A stretch of 64,000 nucleotides of DNA, from positions 17,563 to 81,562 of the forward strand of contig CALXRQ010000001.1 in assembly GCA_944390895.1 (NCBI GenBank). The letters run 5' to 3'. This DNA comes from an uncultured Alphaproteobacteria bacterium (GTDB taxonomy: Bacteria; Pseudomonadota; Alphaproteobacteria; RF32; CAG-239). A program made the position numbers and the translations under genes. The notes under the pieces were generated by a model that was given only the letters and a program-made list of their open reading frames with translations, ran no database searches and was not told where the DNA came from. Position 1 is the first letter of the stretch; every line of letters starts with the position of its first letter. Below, piece after piece: positions 3,552-16,538 of this stretch.

Positions 3552-4268
3552 TCATTCTGCCGGTTTTTCCTGTTCGCCGACATACCACAGCGCCCCTTTT
3601 ATCTTGGCCGCCAGAAAATCCTTATGCGCCTGCAAATCTGCTTCCGAAAGAGCAAAATGACGGGGCTCTCTGAATTTGCGTTCAATTTTTCCCGTCGTAA
3701 AAAGATCTGCTGCCGAAGATGTCTTTTTTTCTTCAAACATCATGGTCGGCTCCTGTCCGCCGATCAGCTGCAGATAAACTTCGGCCAGCAGTTCGGCGTC
3801 AAGCAGGGCGCCGTGTTTGGTACGGTTTGAGTTATCCACGCCGAAACGTTTGCACAAAGCGTCAAGATTGACTCTTGAGCCGGGAAACATATTGCGTGCA
3901 ATTTCCAGCGTATCAACCACCCGGTCCCAGCTGAATTCAGGTTTATTTAACGCCTTCTGCTCATAATTGCAGAAATTAATATCAAAAGAGGCATTATGCG
4001 CGACCATAACGGCGTCTTCGCCGACAAAAGCCAGCCAGTCGTCCACAATCTGGTCAAATGTCGGAAAATCTTTCAAAAACTCATAGGACAGCCCGTGCAC
4101 TTTAAAAGCATCTTCGGGAACGTCGCGCTGCGGATTGATATATTGGTGGTAAACCTTACCGGTCGGCAGATGGTTAATCAGTTCAACGGCGCCGATTTCA
4201 ACCAGACGGTCGCCTTTCGGCGCGTCAAAACCGGTTGTTTCCGTATCAAATACAATCTCCCTAACCAT
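3552..4268 (-). CDS. dnaQ: DNA polymerase III epsilon subunit (3'-5' exonuclease)
   Basis: DEDDh exonuclease motifs (VFDTETTGFD, AHNASFD, HGALLDAELLAEVY). Confidence 0.93.
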   Translation of the reverse strand: MVREIVFDTETTGFDAPKGDRLVEIGAVELINHLPTGKVYHQYINPQRDVPEDAFKVHGLSYEFLKDFPTFDQIVDDWLAFVGEDAVMVAHNASFDINFCNYEQKALNKPEFSWDRVVDTLEIARNMFPGSRVNLDALCKRFGVDNSNRTKHGALLDAELLAEVYLQLIGGQEPTMMFEEKKTSSAADLFTTGKIERKFREPRHFALSEADLQAHKDFLAAKIKGALWYVGEQEKPAE

Positions 4269-4848
4269 TGTTTTCCAACCCTTCTATAATATTTAAAATA
4301 TCCACTTTCAGCAAATTCAGCGGCACATCCGTATCGATAACCGCATCGGCCAAATCCGCTTTGGCTTTTTTGTTCATCTGCACGCTGTTGATCTTTTCAA
4401 AATGTTCGGCGCTGACGTTATCCCTTTTCATAACCCTCTGCTTTTGAATATCGTCAGCCACGTCGGCCACAATTATAAAATCGCAGTATTTATCCCATCC
4501 CATTTCAAACAGCAAAGCCACATCCAAAAAAAACAAATCGTCGCAGACCGCATTGCGGCGAATGACTGATTTTAGCTTTTCCTTCAAAAAAGGATGTATT
4601 AAAGCTTCCAGTTTTTTCAGTTTTTTATTGTCGTCAAAAACCAGATTGCGCAGCTTTCTTTTGTTAAAAATGCCGCCGTCGGCCGCTTCGGGAAAATTTT
4701 TGACAATGGTTGCAATAAAATCCTTCTGAAAATACAAGGCCCTCACCCATCCGTCAACGTCAAACACACTGTAACCCAAGGCTTTGATAATCTTGGCAAT
4801 AGTTGTCTTTCCGCAGCCGATAGAACCGGTTATTGCAATAAGTTTCAT
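4261..4848 (-). CDS. coaE: Dephospho-CoA kinase
   Basis: MKLIAITGSIGCGKTT P-loop at the N-terminus. Start placed at ATG 4848 rather than the longer ORF start at 4914. 8-nt overlap with dnaQ. Confidence 0.9.
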   Translation of the reverse strand: MKLIAITGSIGCGKTTIAKIIKALGYSVFDVDGWVRALYFQKDFIATIVKNFPEAADGGIFNKRKLRNLVFDDNKKLKKLEALIHPFLKEKLKSVIRRNAVCDDLFFLDVALLFEMGWDKYCDFIIVADVADDIQKQRVMKRDNVSAEHFEKINSVQMNKKAKADLADAVIDTDVPLNLLKVDILNIIEGLENNG

Positions 4849-4932
4849 TGTTTGTACCTTAAAATGACGACAGCCCCTTGAAAAAAAATCTTCAGAGCCT
4901 AAATCATATATCAATTCAAACGGTTACCCCAG

Positions 4933-4964
4933 TTATTAACAGCTCGTTAACTTTCTGTGCATAA
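4933..4964 (+). repeat. Composite repeat copy 1: TTAA-N7-TTAA (4936-4950) followed by TGTGCATAA (4956-4964)
   Basis: ttattaacagctcgttaactttctgtgcataa. Near-identical to copy 2, with a 3-nt indel. Confidence 0.7.
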
Positions 4965-5171
4965 CTGAACCTCTGTCTGCATTTATACAATTTTATCGGC
5001 GCAAAACAAATTTATATATATAAGTTATATACAAGTTAATAACTTAAATTAACATAACAAAAAAGCGTGGATAAATTCTTTTATCAACAAAAGCCGCAAA
5101 AAAAACTTTGCCGCAATAGCCGCTTGAAAAAGAATCAAAAAAGGAATCCGTCTGATTTTTGATTCACAAAC

Positions 5172-5200
5172 TTATTAACAAACCGTTAAACTGTGCATAA
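5172..5200 (+). repeat. Composite repeat copy 2: TTAA-N7-TTAA (5175-5189) followed by TGTGCATAA (5192-5200)
   Basis: ttattaacaaaccgttaaactgtgcataa. Same orientation as copy 1 and 239 bp downstream of it. Confidence 0.7.
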
Positions 5201-5371
5201 AATTCGGTATAAAAATTAATACACAGGATTCACCGCGATTCACTATCAACTACTAAATTTTAAAAATTATATATTTAGCCCTGCGGGGCTGTGAATAAAA
5301 CGTCGGGTTCATACCCAAAATTTACATACCGGAAAGATAAATTAACTCTCCCTGGTTTTGTCAAAACTTTA

Positions 5372-5400
5372 TTGACAAAATTGAAATAACATAATATAAA
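5372..5400 (+). promoter_or_regulatory. Putative sigma70-type rho promoter
   Basis: TTGACA (5372-5377), 17-nt spacer, TATAAA (5395-5400). The -35 element is embedded in the inverted repeat TTTTGTCAA-N7-TTGACAAAA (5356-5380). Confidence 0.4.
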
Positions 5401-5491
5401 TTTTCCAACTTACCGATTACAGTTAACAAATAACGCTTAACAAAAGTTTAATCCCTTAAACTTATTCCCAATATACTATCTCAAGGTTAAT

Positions 5492-6745
5492 ATGAATTTA
5501 AAAGATCTAAAACAGAAATCTCCTAAAGAACTGCTCACTGAAGCTGAAGATTTAGGCATTGAAGACGCTTCTTCCATGCGCAAACAAGACTTAATGTTTG
5601 CCATTTTGAAAAAAGTTGCCAGCGAAGACAACATTATTTACGGTGAAGGTACAATCGAAGTTCTGCAAGACGGCTTCGGTTTTTTACGATCCAGCCAGTC
5701 AAACTATCTTGCCGGACCTGATGACATTTATGTTTCGCCTTCTCAGGTTAAAAAATTCGGACTCCGCACCGGCGATACCGTAGAAGGAGAAATCCGCGCG
5801 CCGAAAGACAATGAACGCTATTTTGCCCTGACGAAAGTCAATCGCATAAACTTTGAAGATCCCGAACTATCCAAACTCCGTATTAACTTTGATAACCTCA
5901 CGCCTCTTTACCCCACTGAAAAATTAGATTTTGACATTATCTGCGGCGACAAAGATTATACGACCCGTGTCATTGATCTAATTGCTCCGCAGGGTAAGGG
6001 CCAGCGCGGATTGATTGTGGCGCCGCCGCGTACGGGTAAAACGGTTATGCTGCAAAACATTGCGCATGCAATTGCAACCAATCATCCGGAAGCTTACCTT
6101 ATGGTTTTGCTTATTGACGAACGTCCGGAAGAAGTAACTGATATGACGCGCTCCGTCAAAGGCGAAGTCATTTCATCCACTTTTGACGAACCGGCCGCCC
6201 GCCATGTTCAGGTTGCTGAAATGGTTATTGAAAAAGCCAAACGTTTGGTTGAAACCAAAAAAGACGTCATTATCCTGTTAGATTCCATCACGCGTCTCGG
6301 TCGTGCTTACAATACTGTTATCCCTTCTTCGGGCAAGGTTTTGACCGGCGGTGTCGACGCCAATGCCCTGCAGCGTCCCAAACGACTGCTTGGTGCCGCT
6401 CGCAACGTTGAAGAAGGAGGGTCTCTGACCATTATTGCTACGGCTCTGATTGATACCGGTTCCCGCATGGATGAGGTTATTTTTGAAGAATTCAAAGGCA
6501 CCGGCAACTCCGAAATCATTTTAGACCGTAAACTGACGGACAAACGTCTGTTTCCGACCATTGACATCACCCGTTCCGGCACGCGTAAAGAAGAACTGCT
6601 GGTTGATAAGGCAACCTTGTCCAAGATGTGGGTTCTGCGTCGCGTTCTGATGCAGATGGGCATGACCGACGGTATGGAATTCCTGCTGGATAAGTTGAAA
6701 CAAAGCAAAGACAATCAGGATTTCTTCAATACTATGAATTCTTAA
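5492..6745 (+). CDS. rho: Transcription termination factor Rho
   Basis: Rho N-terminal and cold-shock-like RNA-binding region (GFGFLR), Walker A (APPRTGKT), and a highly conserved C-terminal ATPase. Confidence 0.97.
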
Positions 6746-6749
6746 AAAG

Positions 6750-6783
6750 AAAAGCTCCTTACTAAAGGAGCTTTTCTTTTTTT
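6750..6783 (+). terminator. Intrinsic terminator after rho
   Basis: Stem aaaagctcctt / aaggagctttt with loop acta, followed by a T-run. Confidence 0.8.
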
Positions 6784-7012
6784 GCCGGATAATAATAAAA
6801 ATAGATTTTTTTTATATAATACATTTTGAGTTGTGAAAAAACGAGTCCGAAATTTGCCCGTACAAAAGAAATTTGCCAGGTAGATGATAAATGTGTCATA
6901 AAAAAGGCTTTACCCTCTCCTGAGTCAAAAAATAGCTGTTTTTGCAGAGTCGCTTTTAAATGTTGCTTTCATTCTACAATCTTATTATAAAAAATGCGTA
7001 AGGAGAAATTTT

Positions 7013-8356
7013 ATGACAGCTGAAACCATTTATGCTTTATCCACGGTTTACGGAAAGTCGGGCGTTGCCGTTATCCGCGTTTCCGGACCTTCGGCTTTGC
7101 AGGCCGTTGCGCAAATGACGGATATTGACGTTTCCGTCATAAAACCGCGTTATGCTTATTTTTCTAAAATTAAAGACGTTGATTCACGTGAAACATTGGA
7201 TCAAGGTCTGGTTTTATATTTTAATGCGCCGAATTCTTTTACCGGAGAAGACATTGTCGAGTTTCAAACCCACGGTTCCAAAGCAGTCATAAATTCACTG
7301 ATGGACAATTTAAGCCGACTGCCGGACTTTCGTCTGGCCGAGCCCGGAGAATATTCAAGACGGGCTTTTTACAACGGCAAGATGGATTTGACCGAGGCCG
7401 AGGGCTTGGCTGATCTGATTGATTCGGAAACAACCGAACAGCAAAAATATGCTATGCGCCAAATGGAAGGAGGTTTGAAAAACCTTTACGAAGACTGGCG
7501 TGCGCGGCTGGTAAAAATTCTTGCTTATTTGGAAGCCTTCATTGATTTTCCGGAGGAAGAGATTCCTTCATCTGTTATTGCCGATATGAAAAACACCGTA
7601 TTTAAACTTGAAGATGAGATAAATCAGCACCTGAACGGTGATTCAATCGGCGAACGTCTGCGAGAGGGGTTTAGGGTTGTCATCGTCGGTTCGCCCAATG
7701 CCGGAAAATCAAGCCTGCTTAATGCCATTGTTAAAAGGGATGCCGTAATTGTGTCTGATGTTGCCGGCACCACCCGCGATGCCATAGATGTCCATTTGGA
7801 TTTAAATGGTTATCCGGTGATGTTTACCGATACGGCCGGTCTGCGGGAGACCGAAGAGGAAATAGAAAAGAAAGGCATCGACATCGCCTATTCCAAAATT
7901 CATGACGCTGATTTGGTCATTTGTTTGTTTGACGCATCGCAAGACAATGTTCAGGTCTTTGATAAAATTAGAAATTCATTTAAAAACAAAGCTCTGTTTG
8001 TTGCCAACAAAAGCGACAAACTCTCGCCCGATCAATGCTCTAATCTAAAAAAATCCGGTTGTCTGGTCATTTCTGCCAAATATAAAGAAGGCGTTGACGA
8101 TCTTTTGCAAAAAATCGGAGATAATATAAAAGAACGTTTTACTTCCAACTCGAGCTTGTTGATTACCCGCCGCCGCTATCGCGAAGCTTTGAAAGATGCT
8201 GTCGACAATCTGCGGGCTTTCGGTTTTGACAAAGAAATTGAATTGACCGCCGAAGACATAAGACTGGCGGCTCGTGCTTTGGGAAAAATAACCGGCCGTA
8301 TAGAGGTGGACGAGGTTTTGGATAAGATTTTCGGAGATTTTTGTATCGGAAAATAA
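7013..8356 (+). CDS. mnmE: tRNA modification GTPase MnmE
   Basis: G-domain (GSPNAGKSSLLN, DTAG), C-terminal FCIGK motif, strong SD (AGGAGA). Confidence 0.95.
   Translation: MTAETIYALSTVYGKSGVAVIRVSGPSALQAVAQMTDIDVSVIKPRYAYFSKIKDVDSRETLDQGLVLYFNAPNSFTGEDIVEFQTHGSKAVINSLMDNLSRLPDFRLAEPGEYSRRAFYNGKMDLTEAEGLADLIDSETTEQQKYAMRQMEGGLKNLYEDWRARLVKILAYLEAFIDFPEEEIPSSVIADMKNTVFKLEDEINQHLNGDSIGERLREGFRVVIVGSPNAGKSSLLNAIVKRDAVIVSDVAGTTRDAIDVHLDLNGYPVMFTDTAGLRETEEEIEKKGIDIAYSKIHDADLVICLFDASQDNVQVFDKIRNSFKNKALFVANKSDKLSPDQCSNLKKSGCLVISAKYKEGVDDLLQKIGDNIKERFTSNSSLLITRRRYREALKDAVDNLRAFGFDKEIELTAEDIRLAARALGKITGRIEVDEVLDKIFGDFCIGK
7180..7195. promoter_or_regulatory. parS-like site (15/16 match to TGTTTCACGTGAAACA)
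   Basis: TGATTCACGTGAAACA inside mnmE. Confidence 0.7.
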
Positions 8357-8425
8357 TCGTGCTCATATGTTAAAGGCGGCGCTTTGATTAAGAAGTGTCG
8401 TCTTTTTTATTTGTCAATTTGTCTA

Positions 8426-8454
8426 TTGACCTTGACATATCCTTGTGTTATAGT
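8426..8454 (+). promoter_or_regulatory. Putative promoter of orphan gene 8505..8954
   Basis: TTGACC (8426-8431), 17-nt spacer, TGtTATAGT extended -10 (8446-8454). Confidence 0.4.
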
Positions 8455-8504
8455 TCATATCAGTCGTTAATTACTTATATACTATCACTAAAAAATTATT
8501 AAAA

Positions 8505-8954
8505 ATGAGAAAGCTTAGCACGGGAATCAGTTTTCTGATTTCCAAAAATCTCCAACCGCTTCCGGAAGAAGAATTGTTTGAGATCATCATGGATCAAAAC
8601 TACTTTGGCAATGATCATCTTGAGATGTTGTTTTACGACCGGAAAACATTGAAACAGTTGGCTGAAGACGTAAAAGAGTTTGTCAGCCTGTTTGAGAACC
8701 ACAGTCAGAGCTTTCCTGTTTTGCTCTTGATTGAAAATTCTGACGCAAAGTTGGAAAAGCTGGAAACCATGCGCGGCAGTTATATTGCTGCCGTTGAAGA
8801 TTTCGTCGGCATTTACCGAAAAGGAAAAATTTATGACAACTACCTTGAAGCTTTGCTGCTCTTGTCTTTGGCGTACCGCTGTCCGGAATATTTTTCCGAA
8901 AGCGTTGTTGCTGCGCTGTTGAATTACTGCTCGCACGCCGGAATCTGGTTCTAA
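8505..8954 (+). CDS. Hypothetical protein (orphan, 149 aa)
   Basis: Balanced amino-acid composition. Bracketed by its own promoter-like element and an intrinsic terminator on the + strand. The overlapping minus-strand ORF 8499..9026 looks like an antisense shadow. Confidence 0.55.
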   Translation: MRKLSTGISFLISKNLQPLPEEELFEIIMDQNYFGNDHLEMLFYDRKTLKQLAEDVKEFVSLFENHSQSFPVLLLIENSDAKLEKLETMRGSYIAAVEDFVGIYRKGKIYDNYLEALLLLSLAYRCPEYFSESVVAALLNYCSHAGIWF

Positions 8955-8980
8955 TAAAATTAATTGATCTAATCTGGAAA

Positions 8981-9016
8981 CACTGTCAAATTGTCTGATT
9001 TGGCAGTGTTTTTTAT
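8981..9016 (+). terminator. Intrinsic terminator after orphan gene
   Basis: cactgtcaaa / tttggcagtg stem (one G-U pair) followed by TTTTTT. Confidence 0.7.
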
Positions 9017-9252
9017 TGAAAGTCATGTTCGGCTTAAGTGGCTCCGAGTCCTTTTGCCCCGGTTCAAAATCATATCCATACCTGACATTGTCGTGGTTTT
9101 ATAGTCTTCTTTTTGCGTCGATACCTGACAAAACGCCGTTGAATCTCCTGTTTTTACGGCGTTTTATTTATCTTCCGCCATTAAATCCTTGCTAACTTTT
9201 ATTTGTTAAGTTATACCAGAGAAAAATTTGCACAATTTAAGGCTCTGATATA

Positions 9253-11100
9253 ATGAATACAAACTATGACGTAATTGTCGTCGGCGGCGGTCACGCCGGA
9301 TGCGAAGCCTGTGCGGCAGCGGCCCGTATGGGCGCCAAAACGGCACTGGTCACACATCATATTGATACCATCGGCGCAATGTCCTGCAATCCGGCCGTCG
9401 GCGGCTTGGGCAAAGGTCATCTTGTCCGTGAAATAGACGCTTTGGACGGCCTGATGGGACGGGTAATCGACAAGGCCGGCATACAGTTTCGTATGCTTAA
9501 CGCATCGAAAGGTCCGGCTGTGCGCGGTCCGAGAGCTCAGGCTGATCGAAAGCTTTATAAACGTTATATGCTTGAGGCTTTGCGCGCTCAAAAAAATCTT
9601 GATATTATTGAAGCGGCCGTTGAAGGATTGATGGTCAAGGGCGGAAAAGTTGAAGGCGTTATCTTGGCAGACGGTGTTCAACTGCTTGCAAAATCTGTAA
9701 TATTAACGTCGGGAACCTTTCTGAACGGCATAATGTTTGTCGGTCACCAAACCTCGGTCGGCGGTCGTATCGATGATGTCAGTTGTACCGGAATAACACC
9801 GTATTTAAAGTCTTTGGGCTTGAAAGTAGGCCGTCTGAAGACCGGAACCCCTGCCCGTTTGAACGGCAAAACCATTCATTGGGAAAAGTTGGCCGTCCAA
9901 GACGGAGACAATCCGCCCCAGCCGTTTTCTTATCTTACTGAAAAAATCAGCAATCCGCAGATTAAATGTTTTATTACTCATACCAATGAACATACCCACA
10001 AGATTATTCGTGACAATTTTGATAAGTGCGCTCTGTTTTCCGGGTTGATTACCGGTATCGGTCCGCGCTATTGTCCGAGTATTGAAGATAAACTGGTTAA
10101 ATTTGCCGATCGTACCAGTCATCAGATTTTTTTGGAGCCTGAAGGATTGGATACCGATGTCGTCTATCCGAACGGAATTTCAACTTCGCTGCCGGCAGAC
10201 GTTCAGGAAGCTTTTATCCATACCATGGAGGGTTTGGAAGACGTTGAGATCCTTAAATATGCTTATGCCATTGAATATGATTATGTTGATCCGCAGGAAC
10301 TGGACAGTCGACTTGCCGTCAAAAAAGTTCCGGGGTTGTTTCTGGCCGGACAGATTAACGGAACTACGGGCTATGAAGAAGCGGCGGCCCAGGGTTTGAT
10401 TGCCGGTATTAACGCAGCTTTGGCGGCAAACGGTCAAAAACGTTGTTTTACGGTTGACCGCAGTGAAGCATATATCGGCGTTATGATTGATGACCTGATA
10501 ACCAAAGGCGTTGACGAACCATATCGTATGTTTACCTCTCGTTCCGAATATCGTCTGTTTTTACGGGCGGACAATGCCGATTGGCGCCTGACCGAAAAAG
10601 GATATGAAATCGGCTGCGTCGGCGAATACAGATACAGTGTATTTAAAGCTAAAAAAGCCCAAATAGAATATTATCGCCGCCTTTGTGAGGAACTTTTGAC
10701 CTCCCCGAAAAATCTTGAAACTTACGGCATAAAGGTAAAAAGCGACGGTACCAAACGTACGGTTTTTAATCTGATGTCTTATGACGACGTTTCACGTGAA
10801 ACAATTGTCCGTATCTGGCCGGAACTGAAAGATATGCCCGAGGTTGTCTACGAAGCGATTGAAATAGAGGCGCGCTATGCCGGCTATATCAAACGACAGT
10901 TGGCTGATATAGAAATTTTTAAAAAAGACGAAAACCTTAAAATTAAAGAAGATATAGATTATTCAAAGATCGGCGGACTTTCTCGCGAAATGGTCGCCAA
11001 GCTGTCCAAGGTTCGTCCGTCCACCATCGGCGAAGCCTCCCGCATTCCGGGCGTTACGCCGGCGGCAATTACTGCCGTTCTGGGATATGTCAAAAGGTAG
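9253..11100 (+). CDS. mnmG: tRNA uridine 5-carboxymethylaminomethyl modification enzyme MnmG (GidA)
   Basis: N-terminal FAD fold ([14 protein letters not shown]) and a conserved GidA core and C-terminal domain. Confidence 0.97.
10788..10803. promoter_or_regulatory. parS-like site (15/16 match)
   Basis: CGTTTCACGTGAAACA inside mnmG (encodes DVSRET). Confidence 0.7.
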
Positions 11101-11752
11101 TCCGATGAATATGCCGTTTCCGAGCCGTTCCGAAGCCGTTGATTTTTTTGAATGGGTTATTGCCGAGCGCAATAAAACGCCGTATCCTTTCAGAGACGAC
11201 ATGGAAGACACTTTTCGCCGTCATTGCCACGGTGTCGCAATCATAGCGGAAACAATTGCTTCCAAAACACCGTATTTAAACGCTGATCTGGCCTATGTTA
11301 TGGGGTTGCTGCACGATTGCGGGCGCATTGTCGACGAATATGCTACCGGCGATTATCATGGCGTTGTCGGATATCATCTTTTATGTCAAAAAGGATGGCC
11401 GCAGCTGGCAAAAATTTCCGTCACGCATAACTTTGTCGATAAAGATTTTGATATTGAACTTATGCCGCATCCGCGCAAAGATATGATATTTTGCAAAAAC
11501 TACCTGACGACAGTTGAATATGACGACTATGATCGCTTGCTGCAGTTGGCGGACGCGGTGAACAATCTGGGAAACAACTGCACGGTCGAGCAGCGTTATC
11601 GGAGCATTGCCGTGCGTTATAATGTCGCATATGATGAGCTGCTTTCCGTGATTGCCTCATACAATAAAATTAAACGTCATTTTGACGAGCTGTGCCGCAA
11701 AGACGTATATGATCTGATCGGCGTGAAAACGGAACGATTTACTAAAATTTAA
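11087..11752 (+). CDS. HD/HDIG-domain metal-dependent phosphohydrolase
   Basis: H...HD signature (RRHCHGVA ... GLLHDCGR) with later His/Asp residues. Start 11087 overlaps the mnmG stop; the alternative ATG at 11105 follows AAGG. Confidence 0.7.
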
Positions 11753-11795
11753 TCTCGTCTGTTATATTTTACATTTGAAATAATGGAGATATTGA

Positions 11796-13217
11796 TTGAC
11801 TGAAAACTTTTTTATTCCCGAAAAATTAACCGTAAACGGCGGTCGTCCCGCTCAGGGACATATAAAAATCAGCGGCGCCAAAAATTCGATTCTGGGTTTA
11901 ATGGCAGCATCGCTGTTGACAGATGAACCTGTTATCTTAAACAATGTTCCTTATATTACCGATGTTTTGGAAATGGGACAGATTATGCAGGACATCGGTG
12001 TCGACGTGAGTTTTAATCCGCGGGAGCGTCGGCTCCGTCTTCACGCCGCAAAAATCGGCAAAAACGTCATTTCGCATCAGGCGGCCAATTTCAGAGCAAG
12101 TTACTATCTTTGGGGTTCGCTGCTGGCGCGTTTCAAACGCACCGGCGAATATAACAATCTGCAGGTCTGCCTGCCCGGCGGCTGTTCCTTTGGCGGCAAG
12201 CGACCGACTGATTTTCATGAAGAACTGATAAAAAACGTTTTTGGTGCTCATGTTGCGGTCGAAAGCAAAGACAATGACAAATATTCTTATTTGTCATTTA
12301 CGCTGCCGTCTGCCGAACCTGACGATTTGTGTCCGGTTTATACCACGGCCAAACCGTCCCATGGCGCCACGTTTCACTGGCTTTTGTCCGTTGCCGGATC
12401 CAATCAGCTGAAGATGATGTATAATGCCTCTTTGGAACCTGAAGTTTCAAACTTGATTAATATGCTGCAAAACATGGGATTGGGGCTGATGGGTAATGAA
12501 CGTACCGGCCTGATTTATGACGGCAAAAATACCGGTCTTTTGCACGGAATAGAATTTTCGGTTATTCCCGACCGTCTGGAAGCGGCAACCTATGCTTTGT
12601 TGACCTTGTCAACGCGGGGTGAAGTTCAATTGGAGGGAATCAATTTTGAGCATTGCAGTCCCTGGATCGGCCAGCTGACCAGAATGTTTGATAAGGGTAT
12701 ATATTTTTCTCCTGATTTGACTAAATTGAATCTGGATTTTAGGAACAGAAAAAAATTTGATGGTTTTATCATGCAGATGTCTCCTTTTCCGGGCTTTGAA
12801 ACCGACTTGCAGCAGATTTGGACGCCGGTTTTGGCTCAGGCTCAAACCTCTTCCGTGATTTCAGATATGATTTGGCCCGGCCGGTATGCGCATTTGGCCG
12901 AGCTGGCAAAATTCGGTCTGGAGTTTGATTATCATCAGTTTGACGTTGTCTGCGGACAACAGGCCAGTGCCAAAAACCTCTACGTCAATATTCATCCTTC
13001 GTCCCTGCACAGCGGAGAAGCCAAAGGAACCGATTTGCGCGGTACCATGTCGGTAATTTTGGCCGCGGCAACGGCCGAAGGCAAAAGCGTTGTCAATGAA
13101 CCAAGTTTTGCCCTCCGCGGTTATCCTGACCTGCTGGAAAATATGCAAAAACTGGGAATAAATATTACAGCTTCGGCAAATGGCAGAGAAATCCCTGCCC
13201 TGCCAGGAATAAAATAA
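11796..13217 (+). CDS. MurA-family enolpyruvyl transferase, divergent (473 aa)
   Basis: Conserved MurA motifs: ISGAKNS, FRAS, the LPGGCSFGGKRPTDFH catalytic Cys loop, IPDRLEAAT, FETDLQ, DLRG. TTG start 7 nt after GGAG. Longer and clearly more diverged than typical MurA. Confidence 0.75.
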   Translation: MTENFFIPEKLTVNGGRPAQGHIKISGAKNSILGLMAASLLTDEPVILNNVPYITDVLEMGQIMQDIGVDVSFNPRERRLRLHAAKIGKNVISHQAANFRASYYLWGSLLARFKRTGEYNNLQVCLPGGCSFGGKRPTDFHEELIKNVFGAHVAVESKDNDKYSYLSFTLPSAEPDDLCPVYTTAKPSHGATFHWLLSVAGSNQLKMMYNASLEPEVSNLINMLQNMGLGLMGNERTGLIYDGKNTGLLHGIEFSVIPDRLEAATYALLTLSTRGEVQLEGINFEHCSPWIGQLTRMFDKGIYFSPDLTKLNLDFRNRKKFDGFIMQMSPFPGFETDLQQIWTPVLAQAQTSSVISDMIWPGRYAHLAELAKFGLEFDYHQFDVVCGQQASAKNLYVNIHPSSLHSGEAKGTDLRGTMSVILAAATAEGKSVVNEPSFALRGYPDLLENMQKLGINITASANGREIPALPGIK

Positions 13218-13218
13218 T

Positions 13219-14034
13219 ATGCAGGATTTTACTTATCATACCCATAATAACAATTTTAACTTTTTTGACGGTCATAACAGTGCCGAGGAAATGATTTCCC
13301 GTGCCGAAGAAATGGGGTTCAAAACCATTGGCGTTTCCAATCACCTCATTTGGCACCCTAATGTCGATACTTCGCACGAACCTATGTTTTTGGCTGATAT
13401 TGACAAGGCAATTGACATTCATAAGCGCAGTATTGATTTAATCCGTGAAGTAGGCAGCCGCCACAAAATTAATGTTCTGGTTGGCGCAGAAGCCGATTTC
13501 TTTCAGTCGGCAGAGTGGCGCCGTGGCTTTGAACGGCTTCAAAAAGCGCTGGATTTTGATTATCTTATCGGTACCAATCATTTTGTTATGAATAAGGATG
13601 AAAGTTTTATCTGTAACCTTTATCATCTCAAATATCTTCCCGCCGATTTTGATCGGGACTTTTTGGCCGAATGTATTCGCGGCCATTGGCGCAATGTCGT
13701 CGAATCCATCAACAGCGGTTATTACGATTTTATGGCGCACCTTGATTATTGCGTCATCAAAATTCCCGACAAGCCGGAATATGACGAGTACCGCTGGCAG
13801 ATTATCGAGGCGCTGGATAAACGCAAACAACCCTTTGAGGTCAACACCAGCGGCTATAACCGTATCAACGAGCAGCACCCCAATACCTGGATGTTGAAAG
13901 AACTGTGCAAACGTCGGGTCCCGACCTTAATCAGCGACGACGCGCATCACGTCGAGCAAATCGGCCAACATTTTGAGCGGGCCGAAAATCTGTTAAAAGA
14001 GCTCGATTGTCAGGTTCGTTTTTCTCTCGAATAG
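13219..14034 (+). CDS. PHP-domain phosphoesterase (histidinol-phosphatase-like)
   Basis: N-terminal YHTHxxxxxxxDG motif and later His/Asp ligands (SNH, AHLDY, SDDAHH). Start lies 1 nt after the MurA-like stop. Confidence 0.75.
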   Translation: MQDFTYHTHNNNFNFFDGHNSAEEMISRAEEMGFKTIGVSNHLIWHPNVDTSHEPMFLADIDKAIDIHKRSIDLIREVGSRHKINVLVGAEADFFQSAEWRRGFERLQKALDFDYLIGTNHFVMNKDESFICNLYHLKYLPADFDRDFLAECIRGHWRNVVESINSGYYDFMAHLDYCVIKIPDKPEYDEYRWQIIEALDKRKQPFEVNTSGYNRINEQHPNTWMLKELCKRRVPTLISDDAHHVEQIGQHFERAENLLKELDCQVRFSLE

Positions 14035-14164
14035 TTCAAAAACAGATTCAAAAAACGTTGTCTAACCTATTGTAAAAAGATTCTTTTCTATTTGTTGTAA
14101 AATATGTGTTTATAACTCGGGTTTTTGTGTTTTAAATAATTTTCAAAAATTATATAAATATTTT

Positions 14165-14779
14165 ATGAAAAATTTTATGGACACATATAATGTTTCACGT
14201 GAAACATTTGACCGTTTGAAAACCTACGAAGCCTCTCTTTTTGAATGGCAGAAAAAATTCAATCTGGTCAGCAATGCATCGTTGAGCGACTGCTGGAATC
14301 GCCATTTTCTTGATTCTGCCCAGCTGATAAAATATATTCCGCAAACGGCGCGTATAATGTATGATTTCGGCTCTGGCGCTGGTTTCCCGGGTATGGTGCT
14401 GGCAATTATGCTCAAAGAAAAAACACCGTATTTAAAAGTGCGGCTGATTGAAAGCATTAGAAAAAAGACACTGTATTTAAAAACTGTTGCCGAACTGACG
14501 CATACGGATGTTGAAATTGTTAACGACCGCATTGAAAACATAAAAGTCGAAAAGGCCGACGTTATCACCTCGCGTGCTATGGCGTCCTTAAAAGAACTTT
14601 TGGCCTATACCTATAAATTTTGCAAAAAAGAAACCGTCTGCATTTTTCCGAAAGGTAAAAAATATGCCGAAGAAATTTCGGAAGCCCGCAGGCAGTGGAA
14701 TTTTAATGTGGAAATTTTTGCCAGCGAACAAAGCGACGAGGGTAAAATTTTAATTATAACCGATCTGAATAAGAAATAA
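14165..14779 (+). CDS. rsmG: 16S rRNA m7G527 methyltransferase RsmG (GidB)
   Basis: SAM motif DFGSGAGFPG; conserved position before parAB. Confidence 0.93.
   Translation: MKNFMDTYNVSRETFDRLKTYEASLFEWQKKFNLVSNASLSDCWNRHFLDSAQLIKYIPQTARIMYDFGSGAGFPGMVLAIMLKEKTPYLKVRLIESIRKKTLYLKTVAELTHTDVEIVNDRIENIKVEKADVITSRAMASLKELLAYTYKFCKKETVCIFPKGKKYAEEISEARRQWNFNVEIFASEQSDEGKILIITDLNKK
14191..14206. promoter_or_regulatory. parS site (perfect 16-bp palindrome TGTTTCACGTGAAACA)
   Basis: Exact match inside the 5' end of rsmG (encodes NVSRET). Confidence 0.85.
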
Positions 14780-14790
14780 GGAGATAATAA

Positions 14791-15570
14791 ATGCCAAGAA
14801 TTATTGCCATCGCAAACCGCAAAGGCGGCGTCGGAAAAACCACCACGACGGTCAACGTTGCCACCGCCATGGCCGCCGCCGGAAAAAAGGTTTTGGTAAT
14901 TGATTTGGATCCGCAGGGCAATGCCTCAACCTCAATGGGCGTAAACAAGCGCGGCCGTATGAACTCCTCTTATGAAGTTTTGATTGGCGAGGCCAAATTA
15001 TGTGAATCGATCGTCTGGACCGAAATTCCGAATTTTTCGATTGTTCCGTCGTCGCCGGACCTGGCCGGTGCCGAAATTGAACTGGTCGACGTTGAACACC
15101 GGGAGTTTGCTTTAAAAAATGCTCTCGCCTCAGATGCCGTCAATTATGACTATGTGCTGATAGACTGTCCGCCATCTCTTAACCTGATAACGATTAACGC
15201 TCTTGTTGCGGCCAATGCCGTCATCGTTCCTCTGCAATGCGAATTTTTGGCTTTGGAGGGTATAACGGATCTGATTCGCAATATTAACCAGATTAAACGC
15301 AAATTCAATCCCGAGCTTGAATTGCAGGGTGTTGTTCTGACCATGTATGATAAAAGAAACAATCTCAGCCAGATGGTTGAAGACGATGTCAGAAACTTTT
15401 TCGGTAAAAAGGTTTATCAGACGGTTATTCCGAGAAACGTCAGAATCTCCGAAGCGCCGTCGCACGGCAAGCCGGTGCTGATTTATGATTTTAAATGTCC
15501 GGGTTCTCAGGCATATATCAGCCTTACCGGAGAAGTTTTGAAAAGAGAAAAGGAATTGATGGCATGCTAG
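14791..15570 (+). CDS. parA: Chromosome partitioning ATPase ParA
   Basis: Deviant Walker A (NRKGGVGKTT); strong SD. Confidence 0.96.
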   Translation: MPRIIAIANRKGGVGKTTTTVNVATAMAAAGKKVLVIDLDPQGNASTSMGVNKRGRMNSSYEVLIGEAKLCESIVWTEIPNFSIVPSSPDLAGAEIELVDVEHREFALKNALASDAVNYDYVLIDCPPSLNLITINALVAANAVIVPLQCEFLALEGITDLIRNINQIKRKFNPELELQGVVLTMYDKRNNLSQMVEDDVRNFFGKKVYQTVIPRNVRISEAPSHGKPVLIYDFKCPGSQAYISLTGEVLKREKELMAC

Positions 15571-16538
15571 AAGAAAACAAAAGAAAAAGCCTCGGCCGCG
15601 GTTTGGGCGCTCTGCTCGGCGATGAAGATTTGGATTTGGCCGATTTAAATGAACCGGCTCGTTCGCATGCTTCGCCAAAAAATGCTGATTTTATCCCCAT
15701 CTCCGACATTGTTCCGGGCAAATACCAGCCCCGCACCGAATTTGATGCCGAAGCACTGGATTCGCTGGCTGAATCCATCAGGGAAAAAGGGGTTTTGCAG
15801 CCCCTGCTCGTTCGGCGTCAGGGCGGAAAATATGAGTTAATTGCCGGCGAAAGAAGATGGCGGGCGTCAAAAATTGCTGGACTTGATAAAGTTCCTGTTA
15901 TAATAAAGGAACTGAACGACAAAGAAGTTCTTGAAGTCGCGTTGGTTGAAAACCTGTTGCGCGAAAACCTGTCCGCCATTGAAGAGGCCGAAGGCTTTCA
16001 GCGTCTGATTAACGAGTTTTCCCACACGCAGGAAGCTTTGTCGCAGATCGTCGGCAAATCGCGCAGTCATATCGCGAATATGCTGAGATTGTTAAATCTG
16101 CCTGAAGAAGTTCAGGCTTTGGTAAAGGAAGGCAAACTTTCCGCCGGTCATGCCCGCGCTCTGGTCGGTTTGGACAATGCCATGAGCCTTGCCAAAACTA
16201 TTATTGAAAAAGACTTGAACGTCCGCCAGGTAGAAGAGCTGGTAGCCAAACAGAAAGAACCGAAAAAAGAAAAAGCGCCCAAGGCAAAGGACGAAGACCT
16301 TGAGAGCATAGAAAAAGATTTGAACCGGGAGTTGGGACTCCGTATCAAAATCACGCCGAGCAAGCAGGGCGGCGGCAAAGTCGTATTGCAGTATGCTTCC
16401 GTTGCCGAGCTTGATATGATTATTGAGATTTTGGAACAAAAACGGAAAAATGAATCCCAGCCTGCGGTTAACGCTGTATTTAAAACTGATTCTCCGGTCG
16501 CGGGCTCGGAAAAGTTTTCAATAAAAGTCGTAGATTAA
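15564..16538 (+). CDS. parB: Chromosome partitioning protein ParB
   Basis: SLGRGLGALL box, ParB box (LIAGERRWRAS), HTH. Start set to ATG 15564, overlapping the parA stop. Confidence 0.95.
   Translation: MLEENKRKSLGRGLGALLGDEDLDLADLNEPARSHASPKNADFIPISDIVPGKYQPRTEFDAEALDSLAESIREKGVLQPLLVRRQGGKYELIAGERRWRASKIAGLDKVPVIIKELNDKEVLEVALVENLLRENLSAIEEAEGFQRLINEFSHTQEALSQIVGKSRSHIANMLRLLNLPEEVQALVKEGKLSAGHARALVGLDNAMSLAKTIIEKDLNVRQVEELVAKQKEPKKEKAPKAKDEDLESIEKDLNRELGLRIKITPSKQGGGKVVLQYASVAELDMIIEILEQKRKNESQPAVNAVFKTDSPVAGSEKFSIKVVD

Follow-up and report, generated by a model that had tools for sequence, protein, structure and literature searches.

Among the described replication origins of Alphaproteobacteria, Cori of Caulobacter and the origin of Rickettsia prowazekii, reportedly the work of Marczynski, Brassinga and co-workers, offer a direct comparison for the element considered here, namely the non-coding gap between coaE and rho in a 64-kb stretch of DNA (hereafter the window, meaning the whole stretch analysed) from an uncultured gut alphaproteobacterium. 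Both Cori and the Rickettsia origin lie between hemE and a DUF299/COG1806 gene and contain DnaA boxes, five CtrA sites, an IHF site, five GANTC sites, an A/T-rich region, and internal promoters (PMC1914354, PMC6393856). In Azospirillum sp. B510 and Magnetospirillum AMB-1, the gene order is rho-hyp-hemH-hemE / ori / hyp-maf-aroE-coaE-dnaQ, with parAB near and a shift in GC skew (Kaneko et al. 2010, PMC2818188); this is the synteny on which the initial annotation of the window had drawn, and these two genomes confirm it in print. The Azospirillum oriC (A. baldaniorum Sp245) is placed at hemE, with six DnaA boxes and parAB ~12 kb off (Azospirillum preprint), and an origin is predicted at hemE in sphingomonads (PMC4741004). 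In the predicted origins of Wolbachia, Ehrlichia, and Anaplasma, COG1253 replaces the boundary gene COG1806 and hemE still adjoins, which sets a precedent for the exchange of one ancestral boundary gene (Ioannidis et al. 2007, PMC1914354). Overall, alphaproteobacterial origins occupy the hemE/DUF299 site inside a rho...hemE / maf-aroE-coaE-dnaQ cluster, with parAB ~8-12 kb away (PMC2818188, PMC1914354, PMC6393856, PMC4741004, Azospirillum preprint).

In the window, the hemE/DUF299 boundary is missing and coaE and rho flank the gap instead, while the outer cluster is in place, with rho...gidA-gidB-parAB on one side and coaE-dnaQ on the other. We consider it highly probable that this gap is the DnaA-dependent chromosomal origin of replication (oriC) of the bacterium, and it is very probably the positional homolog of the classical alphaproteobacterial origin, now bounded by rho and coaE. 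Indeed, the gap combines a cluster of DnaA boxes well above background, the conservation of these boxes, and an A/T-rich element that is easily melted in silico; furthermore, parS and parAB lie within ~10 kb, as they do at Cori-type origins. The prediction is sound but unsurprising, as it designates the usual site of the origin in Alphaproteobacteria after loss of the normal flanking genes.

Counted from the probable start of coaE, an ATG at 4848 (MKLIAITGSIGCGK), the gap extends from 4849 to 5491 (643 bp, 69% A+T) and is the longest intergenic region of the window, the runner-up being that between rpsT and dnaA (530 bp). The initial annotation had given it the same rank with a length of 577 bp (4915-5491), which is the remainder after a TTG-extended open reading frame; the rank holds and the length becomes 643 bp from the likely ATG. 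The gap contains no open reading frame of more than 32 aa and matches no Rfam family, either at the gathering threshold or at E≤1, so that its conservation is not explained by a known small RNA or leader family; a tRNA scan of the whole window was also negative. To its left are found secB (minus strand), timA, mltA, an unknown open reading frame, smr, dnaQ, and coaE (both minus strand), and to its right, all on the plus strand, rho, mnmE, mnmG, an HD-domain gene, a murA-like gene, a PHP-family gene, rsmG, parA, and parB, followed at some distance by radA and cvpA. These identifications uphold the gene names and the divergent transcription proposed beforehand, with coaE and dnaQ reading leftward and rho through cvpA on the plus strand, as well as the proposal that hemE and RP001 are absent so that coaE and rho abut. 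The features on which the following argument draws are listed below, mismatches of the boxes being counted against the pattern TTATnnACA.

3552-4268, minus strand: dnaQ, downstream of coaE (gene identification)
4261-4848, minus strand: coaE, left boundary gene (TIGR00152, E=1.5e-39)
4849-5491, no strand: coaE-rho intergenic region, predicted chromosomal origin plus rho promoter and leader
4933-4941, plus strand: box a, DnaA-type (TTATTAACA); pattern exact in 25 of 26 aligned species; overlaps a TTAA-N7-TTAA site
4936-4950, 5175-5189, 5437-5451, and 5487-5501, no strand: TTAA-N7-TTAA (CtrA-type) sites, the sole four in 64 kb
4956-4964, minus strand: box b, DnaA-type (TTATGCACA on the minus strand); exact TTATNCACA; TTATnCACA in 29 of 29 species
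5005-5060, no strand: A/T-rich block, candidate DNA unwinding element (low predicted stability and conservation)
5025-5033, plus strand: box c (TTATATACA), inside the A/T block; at most one mismatch in 26 of 29 species
5066-5074, minus strand: box d, DnaA-type (TTATCCACG on the minus strand); at most one mismatch in 26 of 28 species
5081-5089, plus strand: box e, DnaA-type (TTATCAACA); at most one mismatch in 21 of 28 species; divergent pair with box d
5132-5241, no strand: cluster of five GANTC sites (5132, 5144, 5161, 5227, 5237); 0.87 expected, P=0.002
5160-5168, plus strand: G-box-like 9-mer TGATTCACA, one mismatch from TGATCCACA; at most one mismatch to the box pattern in 7 of 27 species
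5172-5180, plus strand: box g, DnaA-type (TTATTAACA); at most one mismatch in 26 of 28 species; overlaps the TTAA-N7-TTAA site at 5175-5189
5192-5200, minus strand: box h, DnaA-type (TTATGCACA on the minus strand); exact TTATNCACA; at most one mismatch in 25 of 29 species
5217-5225, plus strand: box i, DnaA-type (TAATACACA); at most one mismatch in 27 of 29 species
5255-5277, no strand: second pure A/T tract, conserved across the clade (conservation profile)
5266-5295, minus strand: promoter-like site TTCACA-18-TATAAT, reading leftward into the box array; 11 of 12 consensus positions, a consensus match only
5278-5291, no strand: G+C-rich hairpin AGCCCTGCGGGGCT, separating the second A/T tract from box j; no difference among the four closest species, conservation of ~50% over the clade
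5290-5298, minus strand: box j, DnaA-type (TTATTCACA on the minus strand); exact TTATNCACA; pattern exact in 23 of 27 species
5372-5400, plus strand: probable rho promoter TTGACA-17-TATAAA, followed by a leader of ~90 nt; both hexamers conserved in nearly all of 29 species
5492-6745, plus strand: rho, right boundary gene (NF006886, E=3.9e-207)
7180-7195, 10788-10803, and 14191-14206, no strand: three parS sites, matching TGTTTCACGTGAAACA with 0-1 mismatch; 0.03 expected
14791-16538, plus strand: parAB, parA and parB both identified
61675-63117, minus strand: dnaA, in rpsT-dnaA-dnaN-recF (TIGR00362, E=2.9e-167)

Six DnaA-like 9-mers occur in the gap (starts 4956, 5066, 5081, 5160, 5192, and 5290), each one mismatch away from TTATCCACA or TGATCCACA; all six had been recorded in the initial annotation, which had only put TGATTCACA one nucleotide off, at 5159-5167 instead of 5160-5168. 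With 1% of the sequence, the gap thus holds 6 of the 25 DnaA-like 9-mers of the window, while a scan of the 64 kb gives at most two for any other 577-bp segment, and none is found in the window's other intergenic regions of at least 200 bp, rpsT-dnaA included. First-order Markov simulations of the gap itself (n=2000) yield an expectation of 0.23, and not one of the 2000 reached the six observed. Furthermore, the only three exact TTATNCACA matches in 64 kb, boxes b, h, and j, are all located inside the gap.

The conservation of these motifs was followed in ~30 species-level uncultured gut Alphaproteobacteria assembled from metagenomes, whose CoaE proteins share 49-95% identity with that of the window. 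Their hosts are humans, mice, ruminants, and rabbits, some records being labelled Azospirillum-like or Rhodospirillales, and the nearest public genome is the human-gut assembled genome MGYG-HGUT-04400 (CoaE identity 95%). Wherever the contig of a relative reaches across this junction, coaE and rho remain divergent neighbours, separated by gaps of 346-643 bp, and the hemE and DUF299 families are absent from the Pfam lists of the relatives' 20-kb loci. Each of these gaps carries 1-6 DnaA-like 9-mers and 3-8 TTATnnACA elements. Pooled, the density of DnaA-like 9-mers amounts to 8.3/kb in the gaps, while the remaining intergenic DNA of these loci has 0.31/kb, or 0.33/kb when only regions of 68% A+T or more are counted, which places the motifs clearly above the background of A/T-rich intergenic DNA, a comparison on which the initial annotation had made its proposal depend, together with conservation in relatives. 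The latter was scored in a 34-sequence alignment (26-29 species aligned per conserved box) and is borne out at nine positions (4933+, 4956-, 5025+, 5066-, 5081+, 5172+, 5192-, 5217+, and 5290-), where no more than one departure from TTATnnACA is seen in 21-29 of the 26-29 aligned species. The most conserved element of the gap is box b, which forms an inverted pair with box a in an inverted-repeat search; the G-box-like TGATTCACA is retained in the closest relatives only.

Over 239 aligned boxes, the pooled base frequencies are T.98, T.91, A.95, T.94, N, A.47 or C.51, A.97, C.90, and A.99, position 5 being free with all four bases at 21-29%. Judged from these frequencies, the boxes are under purifying selection, and the pattern is that of the DnaA box TTATNCACA, relaxed at position 6, with TTAT-N-(A/C)-ACA as the form of the clade. 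At a larger scale, the core of the gap still aligns by blastn at a CoaE identity of 67-68%, at which the neighbouring intergenic regions tested no longer align. Assemblies also tend to break in the gap, the contig stopping 79-452 bp upstream of coaE in 4 of 37 related loci (L024, L025, L026, and L030).

The two A/T tracts reported in the initial annotation are both present in the sequence. In the block at 5005-5060, the segment 5012-5052 has an in-silico dG of -37.0 against a mean of -56.0 (standard deviation 4.8), a value that only one other 41-mer of the 64 kb surpasses in instability, and ~45 nt of the block are identical in the four closest species while its flanks diverge. The second tract sits in 5238-5278, a 41-bp segment (dG -39.7) that is among the ten with the lowest stability in the 64 kb. 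Next to it, the hairpin AGCCCTGCGGGGCT constitutes the spacer of the leftward promoter-like site, the -35 hexamer of which is overlapped by box j.

Strand composition was examined through the GC skew at third codon positions (GC3 skew), split by chromosome arm and gene orientation in the window and 29 loci, so that effects of replication could be separated from those of transcription. The pooled arm effect is +0.138 (95% confidence interval 0.117-0.158, bootstrap over loci), and the effect of orientation is small. In 2-kb bins, the GC3 skew shows a step at the gap in both gene orientations, with the polarity of an origin and not that of a terminus, the left arm being sampled over 5 kb (window) to 10 kb (relatives) only. 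In the window, the cumulative GC skew reaches its minimum at ~5-7 kb, the AT skew at third codon positions (AT3 skew) switches from ~+0.2 to ~-0.13, and both AT3 and total GC skew designate the plus strand as leading from 5.5 to 64 kb. At this local scale, the GC-skew check envisaged in the initial annotation does not contradict an origin at the gap, the step being asymmetric and the left arm covering 5-10 kb; cumulative keto-skew minima were too noisy over 20-kb loci.

Local inversions add to this picture. Four species (L025, L026, L032, and L037) carry a small inversion that reverses the rho-gap-coaE-dnaQ module with respect to the mnmE-mnmG-...-parAB block (module and block together correspond to 3552-16538 in the window). 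The block then follows dnaQ, and the direction of every gene remains away from the gap, which is what an inversion symmetric about an origin should produce. The mnmE-parB block of L032 and L037 is skew-neutral on its new arm, and the genes newly placed on the rho arm are clearly GC3-positive in both orientations; part of the skew asymmetry travels with the mnmE-parB block. This block (7013-16538 in the window) has a GC3 skew near zero on either arm, unlike the other genes flanking the gap, and repeated flipping across the origin might be the cause, which leaves the flat corrected skew at 16-64 kb unexplained. Among loci with a rho arm longer than 5 kb, L023 is the sole one with a strongly negative overall GC skew on that arm (-0.21), which suggests a recent rearrangement or an assembly join.

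The three parS sites announced in the initial annotation are confirmed 2-9 kb to the right of the gap. The start of dnaA, put at about 57 kb from the gap in that annotation, is ~57.6 kb away, in rpsT-dnaA-dnaN-recF on the minus strand (59156-63908, with dnaA-dnaN-recF at 59156-63117). As had been stated, the region upstream of dnaA is devoid of a box cluster: between rpsT and dnaA (63118-63647, 530 bp), we found no DnaA-like 9-mer, and the dnaA-dnaN junction has a single box. The 63118-63647 region contains four GANTC sites and G+C-rich stretches, and probably represents a long dnaA promoter and leader. The intergenic region between rho and mnmE (6746-7012) was also considered as an origin and discarded: it is A/T-rich and unstable, but it holds a single box and is split by extra genes in relatives.

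Several observations weigh against an origin in the gap. The GC3 step is asymmetric, with ~-0.25 on the coaE arm vs ~0 to +0.05 on the rho arm, and the orientation-corrected GC3 skew of the window stays at ~0 across 58 kb of the right arm. The cumulative skew of 10 out of 22 loci reaches its minimum not in the gap but 2.5-6 kb rightward of it. As relatives with many genes in common, the species compared do not provide independent samples of skew, and the support as a whole is computational, with a left arm of 5-10 kb. Finally, no box of the window matches TTATCCACA perfectly, perfect boxes being present in several relatives. In the main alternative, the origin would lie elsewhere, outside the window or by dnaA, and the gap would be a secondary DnaA locus, serving titration or reactivation in the manner of datA or DARS, or DnaA control of rho and/or coaE. 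Clusters of DnaA boxes that are not origins do exist in other bacteria, as exemplified by datA and DARS of Escherichia coli; the gap also houses the rho promoter, which is conserved, and the leftward promoter-like site with its overlap with box j; and the right arm is almost without replication-type GC3 skew. However, an origin at dnaA is contradicted by the near absence of boxes there (none at rpsT-dnaA, one at dnaA-dnaN) and by the plus strand being leading from 5.5 to 64 kb, a polarity opposite to what such an origin would impose, and we rejected it. Likewise, a skew step of origin polarity in both gene orientations, synteny with mapped or predicted alphaproteobacterial origins, the adjacent parS cluster, and the combination of nine conserved boxes with a conserved and very unstable A/T block, which exceeds what known titration sites need, render a secondary locus improbable.

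The conserved rho promoter hexamers are also what would be expected if the gap were a long regulatory region only, made of the rho promoter and leader and the coaE promoter, in which TTATnnACA would bind a transcription factor other than DnaA. Long autoregulated leaders are common in rho genes, and position 6 of the boxes is A as often as C, unlike the canonical TTATNCACA. Against this stand the conserved positions together with the free position 5, which reproduce the pattern of a DnaA box, the three exact TTATNCACA boxes, the perfect TTATCCACA boxes in several relatives, and the 370-bp span of the boxes, the greater part of which precedes the rho promoter. A purely regulatory role would moreover account neither for the skew step nor for the A/T block and the synteny with known origins, and we hold this reading to be very improbable. 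As for a chance product of A/T-rich intergenic DNA, the region is indeed 69% A+T and the motifs are themselves A/T-rich, but the excess over the simulations and over other A/T-rich intergenic regions, together with box positions conserved in ~29 species, makes such an origin of the cluster hardly conceivable.

The regulation of the predicted origin was approached through other motifs. Three of the four TTAA-N7-TTAA sites are within the gap (0.24 expected, P=0.002, Markov simulations) and the fourth is at the rho start codon, two of them overlapping boxes a and g. In relatives, their density is 3.0/kb in the gaps vs 0.14-0.27/kb in other intergenic regions (11- to 20-fold), but they are missing from the gaps of 11 of 29 species and are not conserved clade-wide. 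The first TTAA half-site is part of the TTATTAACA box itself, and the second half-site at 5175-5189 is 60-70% conserved. GANTC sites number from 0 to 7 in the relatives' gaps. Neither the exact IHF consensus WATCAANNNNTTR (exact-match search), nor the W-box TCCCCA, nor GATC is present in the gap, and a single G-box-like 9-mer (TGATTCACA), shared with the closest relatives only, stands in place of a Caulobacter-style set of G-boxes. Searches for CtrA and CcrM covered the window and the fetched loci of relatives, in which no CtrA homolog was found. The window encodes an OmpR-type winged-helix protein of 209 aa (52767-53396, plus strand); its N-terminal half is without a receiver-domain match, and it is not a CtrA ortholog because its identity to Caulobacter CtrA is only 25%. 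A solitary beta-class N6-adenine DNA methyltransferase is encoded at 55238-56161 (minus strand; PF01555, 2e-49) and scores 128 bits against the CcrM model (cut-off 830) and 157 bits against PRK11524 (cut-off 292); it may or may not target GANTC. CtrA control of this origin is possible in this species.

We propose the following scheme for the coaE-rho gap as oriC. The ancestral locus rho-hyp-hemH-hemE / ori / DUF299-maf-aroE-coaE-dnaQ would have lost its inner genes to give rho / coaE-dnaQ, and rho and coaE would thereby have become the boundary genes. DnaA would bind about nine TTAT-N-(A/C)-ACA boxes spread over ~370 bp (4933-5298), most of them arranged in inverted pairs (a/b, d/e, g/h, and i...j), and the resulting complex would open an A/T-rich stretch within the array, 5005-5060 being the best candidate and 5255-5277 the second. 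Forks would then depart both ways, leftward in the direction in which coaE-dnaQ are transcribed and rightward in that of rho-mnmE-mnmG...parAB, and the parS sites 2-9 kb rightward would be replicated early and handled by ParAB. As options, a CtrA-like regulator could compete with DnaA through the TTAA-N7-TTAA sites at boxes a and g, and transcription from the rho promoter or the leftward site could aid opening, as reported for hemE Ps in Caulobacter. A bolder scenario, which we judge unlikely, is that the origin of this host-associated clade has become a compact mobile module, rho-ori-coaE-dnaQ, devoid of the classical boundary genes and repeatedly flipped relative to mnmE-parAB; in the part of the clade that has CtrA-type sites on DnaA boxes and the leftward promoter, a Caulobacter-like gating by CtrA competition, and possibly by origin transcription, would operate in uncultured gut anaerobes and would have been gained or lost within the clade.

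A few observations concern the neighbouring genes. At 11087-14034, the HD-domain, murA-like, and PHP-family histidinol-phosphatase-like genes separate mnmG from rsmG, which are neighbours in the classical gidA-gidB order; the murA-like gene scores 281 bits, slightly under its cut-off of 297, and the set of genes between mnmG and rsmG differs among relatives. The rho-mnmE spacer is 267 bp long in the window, has an extra open reading frame of 247 aa in the 95%-identical relative (L001/L005, 7316-8059), and in the P0061 group (L002, 4611-7741) has three added genes encoding a HAD hydrolase, an N-formylglutamate amidohydrolase-like protein, and an amidoligase. Further away, between polA and gyrB, an open reading frame of 1165 aa (43913-47410, minus strand) has no Pfam match at E≤1e-8.

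This analysis provides a precise predicted origin coordinate and a DnaA-box consensus for the clade, TTATN(A/C)ACA, in widespread uncultured gut Alphaproteobacteria. These may serve to rotate or check assembled genomes, to derive growth rates from origin-to-terminus read depth in metagenomes, and as a starting point for a replicating vector. As hemE and DUF299 are lost here, search rules based on hemE would miss this origin. The general understanding of origins is unchanged; what the prediction adds is that the alphaproteobacterial origin would stay in place despite the loss of hemE and DUF299, the genes by which it is usually located.

Compared with Cori and the Rickettsia origin, the coaE-rho gap shares the neighbourhood (coaE-dnaQ to one side, rho-mnmE-gidA-gidB-parAB to the opposite one), a size of ~400-650 bp, several DnaA boxes, an A/T-rich block of ~40 bp, promoters inside the origin, parS at ~8-10 kb or nearer, and, as far as this species is concerned, TTAA-N7-TTAA sites that partly overlap DnaA boxes; GANTC sites number five in Cori and five here. 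On the other hand, hemE, DUF299, maf, and aroE are missing from this locus, and dnaA is ~57.6 kb away. The boxes are of the TTATN(A/C)ACA type, unlike the G-boxes and low-affinity W-boxes of Caulobacter, and the IHF consensus and, in 11 of the 29 species, the CtrA-type sites of Cori are lacking. The designation as a Caulobacter-type origin in the initial annotation consequently applies to the chromosomal position and does not extend to the regulatory features specific to Caulobacter.

Relative to oriC of E. coli, the gap has a similar multi-box array in both orientations beside an A/T-rich unwinding element, with TTATNCACA grammar and a predicted dependence on DnaA, but the A/T block is within the array and not at its edge, the flanking genes are different, and, with no GATC in the gap, a GATC/SeqA system does not apply. 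The outer cluster and the nearby parAB are the same as in Azospirillum and Magnetospirillum AMB-1; here, however, the locus has lost five or six inner genes, the predicted origin is bordered immediately by rho and coaE, and the genome is much smaller and more A/T-rich, as judged from related contigs of up to ~1.9 Mb. Finally, whereas hemE still abuts the predicted origins of Wolbachia, Ehrlichia, and Anaplasma and both classical boundary genes are lost here, the coaE-rho gap presents the same in-silico hallmarks as these origins, with a cluster of sites unique among intergenic regions longer than 300 bp, a raised A+T content, a conservation above that of other intergenic DNA, and, at a local scale, an asymmetric shift in skew.

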